Shown piece by piece: positions 59,946 to 60,702 of a stretch of 60,923 nucleotides of DNA. The notes below the pieces were generated by a model. That model did no database searches and was not told the origin of the DNA. It saw only the letters and a list, made by a program, of their open reading frames with translations. The position numbers and the translations under genes were made by a program. Origin of the DNA: Patescibacteria group bacterium (lineage in GTDB: Bacteria; Patescibacteriota; Patescibacteriia; Patescibacteriales; UBA12465); assembly GCA_041658665.1 (NCBI GenBank), contig JBAZZR010000004.1, positions 1 to 60,923 of the forward strand, given 5' to 3'. Numbering within the stretch: position 1 is the stretch's first letter; each line of letters starts with the position of its first letter.

Positions 59946-59961
59946 AAATATAATTGCCTGT

Positions 59962-60702
59962 CTACCGGTCAGTCAGATCCTCGACAAGACGAACCGCATC
60001 ATTGAGAAAGCGATTCTCAGGGTTGCTGAGGTCACGGTCGTCGTGGCTAAGGAAACGAAGCACAAATCTGCCACTATTTTTCTCGGTCTCATCGGTTGTC
60101 CATGTCCAATTTACGCCAGACAATAGAGCTCTTCCCTCTTTCCATTCAGCTTCGGTTTGAATCCGGAATTTTCTACCTGTTTGATCGCTAAGTCGTTTAG
60201 CAAATTCTCTGGCATCATGTAAGTTTACATAAACTAAAGCCTCTCCGGCCTTCGCTGGGTCATCCAGAAGAGCTTTAAGTGCGTCAGCATTATGTCCTGT
60301 GATTTTGTAGCCTTCCATAACCTGATTGAATAATCCAACCGAAACCTCCCCCTTCATGATTTTTCTTCCACCTGAAAGAGCAACCATCTCAGGGATTTCT
60401 ATTTGGGGATGGCGAGGTGTAGCAACCTCAAACAAAGCGTCCATTTCAGCTGCTTTGGCATCAATTTCATCAGGAGTAAGCAAAATTACAGAGGGATTCA
60501 TTATCAATCCTAGCGGCGTGCGAACTTCAATGTTCGCAGGCGGAATCAATGAACGCAATTCTACTGAGGACTTAAAAAGCTTTGCGGCTTTTACTATATA
60601 ACCTGTGATTGGGTCAAACACTCGCACAGCCAACCCTCTTTTGCGATTATTCTCAACTCTTCCAACTTGCTCTTTCACCGTCATTCTATTCGTAATTGCC
60701 AT
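59962..60702 (-). CDS. FGE-sulfatase/C-type-lectin fold protein, candidate DGR target
   Basis: EVSVGLF, VNLHDAREFAKRLS..TGRKFRIQTEAEW, NWTWT, VLR...NPENR...AVRLV. GGAGG RBS. Confidence 0.8.
   Translation of the reverse strand: MAITNRMTVKEQVGRVENNRKRGLAVRVFDPITGYIVKAAKLFKSSVELRSLIPPANIEVRTPLGLIMNPSVILLTPDEIDAKAAEMDALFEVATPRHPQIEIPEMVALSGGRKIMKGEVSVGLFNQVMEGYKITGHNADALKALLDDPAKAGEALVYVNLHDAREFAKRLSDQTGRKFRIQTEAEWKEGRALLSGVNWTWTTDETEKNSGRFVLRFLSHDDRDLSNPENRFLNDAVRLVEDLTDR
59977..60063 (-). other. Candidate DGR variable region (VR)
   Basis: NNY codons at variable positions alternate with A-free constant codons. No third-position A in the last 33 sense codons. Confidence 0.6.

Follow-up and report, generated by a model that had tools for sequence, protein, structure and literature searches.

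A lectin-fold gene with a DGR variable region and no retroelement beside it, probably a frozen leftover of a lost DGR

A lectin-fold gene near one end of the 60,923-nucleotide stretch of DNA analysed here (the window) closes with codons that look like the variable region (VR) of a DGR target, and neither an RT gene nor a template repeat (TR) stands next to it. An earlier note on this DNA proposed that the gene is a remote target that is diversified in trans. The locus therefore raises the question of whether a DGR wrote the 3' end of this gene and, if so, whether one still does. The features on which the answer depends are collected in Table 1.

Table 1. Features of the target locus, its surroundings and the linked genome (window positions unless a contig is named)
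Feature	Position	Strand	Remarks
Target gene	59962..60702	-	246 aa; the earlier note gave 59955..60702
Variable region	59977..60063	-	codons 214-242; 14 adenine-derived variable codons on an A-free scaffold
Constant VR 3' end, A-V-R-L-V-E	59980..59997	-	likely IMH; same register as the 3' end of the templates
Decayed copy of a 19-nt dispersed palindrome	59958..59976	-	inserted just after the IMH
Gap between target stop and convergent nikR stop	59946..59961		16 nt; family downstream motif and avd absent
nikR	59463..59945	+	convergent neighbour; context only, outside the element
Ribosome-binding site of the target, GGAGG	60712..60716	-	
Promoter-like motif, TGAAATT-N14/15-CGAT(A/G)	60760..60785	-	sigma-28-like by resemblance only
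All promoter-like motif sites in the window	52128-52154 (+), 54958-54984 (-), 60760-60785 (-)		73 sites in G115
End of a multi-copy repeat	60804..60923	.	likely IS, about 8 copies; breaks the contig; links the window to G115
RT gene (L001)	G000:C3:6154-7359		401 aa; YVRVGDD motif; overlaps an ABC-transporter-like gene, then a PLD-like gene
Flagellar basal body, rod, short hook-like gene and complete export gate	G115:C2:68627-81159 and 233458-242772		L204, L212, L213

The target protein starts with about 21 disordered residues, continues with a lineage-specific N-terminal region and, from about residue 100, forms a reduced FGE-type C-lectin domain. An AlphaFold2 model of the protein has a mean pLDDT of 85.9, with residues 1-21 mostly below 50, and its Foldseek matches include the FGE domains of SenA and EgtB (E 7e-5) and the DGR target TvpA (2y3c, E 1.6e-4), with E values ranging to 4e-4. 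The FGE-type CLec fold claimed in the earlier note is thus borne out, as a predicted structure, by these matches to SenA, EgtB and TvpA; the protein by itself gives no Pfam FGE match at E<=0.1. The likeness to the FGE and EgtB-SenA C-terminal domain (PF03781) is one of fold, and many of the 52 homologues that we found carry PF03781; several of the 52 are named Saganbacteria or Margulisbacteria. Unlike an FGE, the target has a reduced domain and contains no cysteine in any of its 246 aa; it therefore lacks the FGE catalytic pair and is not a catalytic FGE, and names such as 'SUMF1/EgtB/PvdO nonheme iron enzyme' describe the fold only. The protein was also said to lack a signal peptide, and its sequence has no hydrophobic stretch at the N-terminus. 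The C-termini of the homologues retain the pattern VLR-L----R----PE-R----AVRLVED and vary freely in between.

The 33 codons that the earlier note quoted from the 3' end of the gene match the sequence exactly. None of them has A in codon position 3, compared with 32% in the remainder of the gene (binomial P ~2e-6), and among 1,289 ORFs of at least 150 aa in the window and in the linked genome G115, the target is the sole ORF whose last 33 codons are free of A in this position.

Real templates come from relatives. When genome contigs were scanned with the single target protein, no relative was found; a 15-sequence alignment succeeded, and genome and metagenome scans with it collected 26 target-family loci. 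A template lies downstream of the target in 2 of the 26 loci, in the order target-avd-RT-TR, and the avd and RT genes of relatives' cassettes were confirmed by Pfam, the RT bearing the motif YMDD. In the L014 cassette, the 14 VR/TR differences over 87 nt all fall on adenines; in a second cassette (G137:C4), there are 15 at adenines and 0 elsewhere. The target family is a DGR target family, with full cassettes in WOR-1/Saganbacteria relatives. The 14 codons that had been picked out as variable from the window's sequence correspond one for one to the variable codons that carry adenine in the L014 template (11 AAC plus CAC, GAC and TAT), and the template that had been predicted shares 71 of 86 bases, by hand count, with the real template L011 and equally many with another, L092.

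Comparison of the window's VR with three relatives' templates at codon positions 1 and 2 reveals changes at 12 of the 26-27 template-A sites and at only 1-3 of the 29-30 other sites, an adenine bias that is significant against each of these foreign templates (Fisher p 0.0003-0.005). The other 8-9 differences fall at codon position 3. Compared codon by codon, the window's VR shows 10-11 non-adenine differences from the three templates, and none of 11 family templates matches it better. As judged from these alignments, the 3' end of the target gene is confirmed as a real DGR variable region.

A sister allele of the target speaks to the timing of diversification. It lies on a 559-nt contig of run X1 (depth 4), whose alignment to 59980-60222 shows 28 differences; 23 of them enter the counts given here, the 5 near the aligned end being unlisted. 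Upstream of the VR, there are 15 differences in 129 nt (43 codons), 7 of them at codon position 3, and these position-3 differences indicate that the allele belongs to a related strain or species and is not a variant made by a DGR of the host. The visible part of the VR has 8 listed changes, all of them non-synonymous and none at position 3; the two alleles differ there at 7 of 19 template-A sites versus 1 of 34 others (p 0.002). These adenine-site differences show that a DGR did write this region and was active after the alleles had split. Nor can diversification have ceased long ago, since the scaffold is A-free at position 3 and 0 of the 18 visible third positions differ between the alleles, as against the 7 upstream.

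The downstream end of the VR has not stayed intact. Its constant 18 nt are conserved with the templates and are likely the IMH, a function that we assign from the DGR architecture described in PMC5758913, and a decayed insert follows them directly. The earlier note had remarked on an imperfect palindrome across the stop. Its letters are indeed present, and the hairpin that they would form is no better than those of shuffled sequences (DNA folding -2.4 kcal/mol, z -0.37; 65 of 200 shuffles equally good). The palindrome is a decayed dispersed repeat: L023 has a perfect copy in the corresponding place, from which 4 of the 19 bases differ here, 3 further palindrome loci within 2 edits lie in G115, and the TAG stop of the target arose from one substitution in this copy. 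A role as a DGR hairpin is ruled out by the non-significant folding together with the identity as a dispersed repeat. Of 47 relatives' targets, 17 carry a T-rich motif after the stop, among them 10 of the 10 that are trailed by avd or by a stump of it. This family motif is not present after the stop of the window's target, and the loose end of the sister allele keeps it. Since PMC5758913 records downstream hairpins for just 34% of DGRs, loss of the motif need not inactivate a target.

To which organism the window belongs determines where a missing partner should be sought. The window is contig C4 of assembly G000, and each of its four 15-kb chunks ranks among the 7 worst composition outliers of 69. 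Its 23S gene is 70-75% identical to a second 23S on G000:C1 and up to 87% identical to those of WOR-1 phylum genomes. The repeat at the end of the window is identical to contig ends of G115; one end of the repeat is found on 7 G115 contig ends plus the window end and the other end on 8, and its depth in run X1 (132 versus 16.4 for the host, or eightfold) agrees with about eight copies. Furthermore, G115 has a 16S gene and no matching 23S or 5S, and its 46 tRNAs lack only Ala(tgc) of the usual set, which the window supplies along with 23S, 5S, lexA, dinB, nifU, phoU, nikR and cbiM, all likewise absent from G115. We infer with good confidence that G115 is the true host of the contig, which by the same comparisons is mis-binned in G000. 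Despite a reported contamination of 0.73%, G000 is chimeric, its contig C5 holding a second 16S about 65% identical to the 16S on C2; a search for a template in that assembly is therefore uninformative, and a negative test for a trans partner there means nothing.

Two further observations concern the window at large. Its 23S and 5S genes (27206-30293) are unlinked from the 16S gene, which lies on G115:C2, and an element of about 125 nt (15062-15187) has at least 9 copies in G115 that are 70-77% identical, some of which match in both orientations.

As the earlier note had stated, there is no DGR template or RT in the window, and none in G000 save one unrelated RT. Template searches of G000, by blastn with the VR and by an adenine-tolerant scan, returned A-rich noise only. 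The RT on G000:C3 was rejected as a partner because it belongs to a different organism, has no adjacent avd or TR and is unmatched by DGR RTs (tblastn, E<=1e-3). In G115 (contigs C1-C30, 1,705,754 bp; a draft with about ten contig ends unjoined), tblastn gives no match for two DGR RTs or for two Avd proteins, neither Pfam (E<=0.1) nor a protein search finds an RT, and a DNA search finds no template, the best template-like window scoring 89 versus 50-53 for foreign TRs on a scale where lower is better. Nor do these contigs hold a paralogue of the target. Runs X1 and X2 are represented by assembled contigs only, which drop rare variants. Among the 3 contigs of run X1 that align to the host VR at 80% likeness, none is template-like, and the host VR itself lies on one unbranched contig at depth 16.4, a form in which rare variants cannot show; in run X2, where the species is thin (0.39 of words), no near-identical contig covers the VR. 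In the search for a copy of the VR that the earlier note had recommended, G000 and G115 yield no template, and relatives' cassettes do carry matching templates beside avd and RT.

Loss of the cassette is widespread among the relatives. Behind 47 family targets, a set of rows that includes some near-duplicates or short contigs, avd is found in 6 cases, an avd stump of 12-39 aa in 4 and neither in 37. RT genes are internally deleted or split at L011, G001:C60 and G001:C45 and truncated in G103. These avd stumps and internally deleted RTs indicate that the relatives' cassettes decay stepwise. The single 1.77-Mb chromosome of G002 holds four target paralogues and no RT or TR. An RT match (E<=1e-20) is present in 6 of the 25 genomes with a close homologue (E<=1e-15) and absent from the other 19, a share without RT that is inflated because most of the 25 are incomplete drafts. 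Between genomes, the family's templates show 84-91% likeness. Within G001, the VR at C60 differs from the template at C45 by 20 adenine and 0 other differences, which makes that template a closer match than its own neighbouring one, and this match indicates that cross-locus (trans) targeting does occur in the target family. The two loci (L050 and L049) are decayed cassettes within one genome.

In a tree of the targets (6 rows, tandem or mis-parsed, left out; 22 of 40 inner branches open; bootstrap unsettled), the 10 rows with avd or a stump involve 4 label changes, 2 of which are forced by strong branches. Targets that bear avd are scattered among orphans over the tree and cluster no more than in shuffles. 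Viral contigs contain no target homologue among 17 pattern matches. Some members of the family stand in tandem arrays (L007, L022 and L024, in G004 and relatives), where the VR-like segment is internal or duplicated; these tandem members have long C-terminal extensions (355-607 aa), and their VR has drifted.

Taken together, the VR signature, the relatives' cassettes and their stepwise decay, the loss of the downstream motif and the absence of RT, avd and TR from G115 and the window lead us to favor the reading that the target is a frozen leftover of a lost DGR, probably no longer diversified. A cassette would once have followed the target gene and would have written its VR by adenine-mutagenic retrohoming. 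The avd-RT-template part behind the target would then have been deleted and the last variant kept as a fixed lectin under its own promoter and ribosome-binding site, presumably still expressed from the regulon promoter and binding a ligand through the VR surface. Several points count against the leftover reading: with G115 a draft, the contig mis-binned and DGR cassettes prone to break assemblies, a TR/RT contig could be missing; the scaffold is still fully A-free at position 3; and cross-locus targeting, on the evidence of G001, does occur in this lineage. The unclosed state of G115, the pristine scaffold and the trans match in G001 also serve the proposal that a host TR/avd/RT locus, unassembled or binned away, still rewrites the VR in trans, as does the fact that such targets are established (29 target genes lie more than 100 kb from an RT, PMC5758913). 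Like the window's gene, the remote targets of Treponema and cyanobacteria described there have a C-terminal VR and no nearby RT or TR and are chromosomal and not phage-associated. Such targets rely on a matching TR and an RT within their own genome, however, and none was found in the 1.71 Mb of G115 plus the window, which carry a complete tRNA set over many loci. Moreover, the family motif is gone, a decayed insert follows the IMH, and the host VR is one unbranched contig with no template-like contig in the same run. We consider an active remote target unlikely, and the earlier note's claim of present diversification in trans is not sustained, given that the likely host has no DGR RT, avd or TR and the downstream motif is lost.

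A third reading is that the target stays competent, depends for its rewriting on a compatible cassette regained now and then from co-occurring relatives, and is afterwards frozen again. The scatter of avd-backed targets among orphans, the likeness of family templates across genomes and the presence, in run X1, of a relative with an intact downstream motif would all fit such intermittent diversification. It is nonetheless an improbable account: the non-adenine differences separate the window's VR from the three templates and none of the 11 is better, the viral contigs with no homologue leave it with no identified vehicle, and the tree behind the scatter is poorly resolved. The view that the gene has no DGR history and encodes an ordinary FGE-like protein whose tail reflects biased codon use or chance could appeal to the missing Pfam match of the target alone and to a host with no template. 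Such an origin is scarcely credible when the signature occurs in one of 1,289 ORFs and the differences from templates and from the sister allele are biased toward adenines, and it is refuted by the cassette-linked homologues with real templates.

A leftover orphan target is a state already known from Treponema, and the importance of the window's gene by itself is accordingly modest. Isolates of T. denticola that have no RT or TR keep leftover DGR target genes (PMC4891356, section 11). In that section, as in the window, the VR differs from relatives' TR mostly at adenines and the genome lacks RT and TR; as in the window's family, the targets have an FGE-type CLec fold and the DGR core is gained and lost across related genomes. 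The two cases differ in that most T. denticola targets are predicted lipoproteins (62% in PMC4891356), whereas the window's family has no signal peptide. The window's family also has a shortened FGE domain, a VR end of AVRLVED, a promoter motif common to about 75 lineage-specific genes and a loss that can be traced through avd stumps and internally deleted RTs. Relative to the DGR of Bordetella phage BPP-1 (Mtd, Avd, bRT, TR), the relatives' cassettes likewise combine a target, a bAvd-like gene, an RT with YMDD and an AAC-rich TR with adenine-only differences; unlike BPP-1, their order is target-avd-RT-TR and they are chromosomal, and the window's locus consists of the target only, with no significant GC-rich inverted repeat.

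The survey in PMC8144416 misses remote targets, by a statement in its own text, and a tail free of A at codon position 3 can reveal DGR targets that RT-anchored surveys miss by design. The words 'Margulis' and 'Saganbacteria' are absent from the main text of PMC8144416, whose supplementary DGR lists may include the phylum, and 'flagell', 'secretion' and 'retroelement' are absent from the main text of PMC6349859. A literature search that covered few subscription papers returned nothing on DGRs or on a filament-less export system in Saganbacteria. A survey of DGRs in candidate phyla was reportedly published by Paul et al. (Nat Microbiol 2017) and may already list WOR-1 DGRs.

The earlier note had also placed the target under a sigma-28-like motif and spoken of a regulon, and the target does belong to a large set of genes with this motif, which it shares with 75 other host ORFs. 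Searched as TGAAAH-N15/16-YGATR, the motif is found upstream of 76 of 1,577 host ORFs, compared with 0-9 in 20 shuffles and 26 antisense; the spacer was tuned once, a first expression with too short a spacer having given 41 versus 19-44 in shuffles, and was reset from the upstream regions of relatives. The motif also lies upstream of 19 of the 47 relatives' targets. Among the motif-bearing proteins, 50 of the 68 scanned have no Pfam match at 1e-8, and the set includes two protein kinases and rpoD. Arg makes up 9.7% of the first 30 residues of the motif-bearing proteins, versus 4.6%, and Pro is enriched there as well; a hydrophobic N-terminus is present in 5 of 73, as against 416 of 1,388. The flagellar export clusters of G115 include two sigma genes, whose likeness to FliA was judged by eye from the sequences. 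The motif is not found in front of the G115 flagellar genes themselves. By analogy, we infer that a sigma-28-type sigma factor may read the promoter motif.

The flagellar genes of G115 (Table 1) are not accompanied by flagellin or the stator protein MotB, which are absent from G115 as they are from 5 of 5 genomes checked. Of 146 genomes of the phylum, 134 encode FlhA and 15 encode flagellin, and a second FlhA is present in most of the latter. From its gene content, the G115 apparatus looks like a conserved, non-motile, flagellum-derived export system, and the motif-bearing proteins, lectins included, might be exported through it. A broader scenario, which we put forward tentatively and hold to be doubtful, is that hit-and-run DGR cassettes provide Saganbacteria with a repertoire of fixed lectin variants, which would share their regulation with about 75 lineage-specific proteins and leave the cell through a flagellum-derived type III apparatus lacking filament and motor. 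If this scenario were true, the targets would differ from surface lipoproteins and phage tail fibres in being exported proteins, diversified by DGRs, that act on a host or prey cell. Were the regulon and the filament-less apparatus indeed to handle the lectins, an uncultured phylum of unknown lifestyle would offer a link between DGR hypermutation and protein export.

G115 contains a second FGE-domain gene (G115:C3:111186-112226), the end of which resembles another DGR family and has drifted: over 81 nt, it departs from the template of G003:C189 at 11 adenines and at 18 other sites. This gene is possibly an older DGR leftover.
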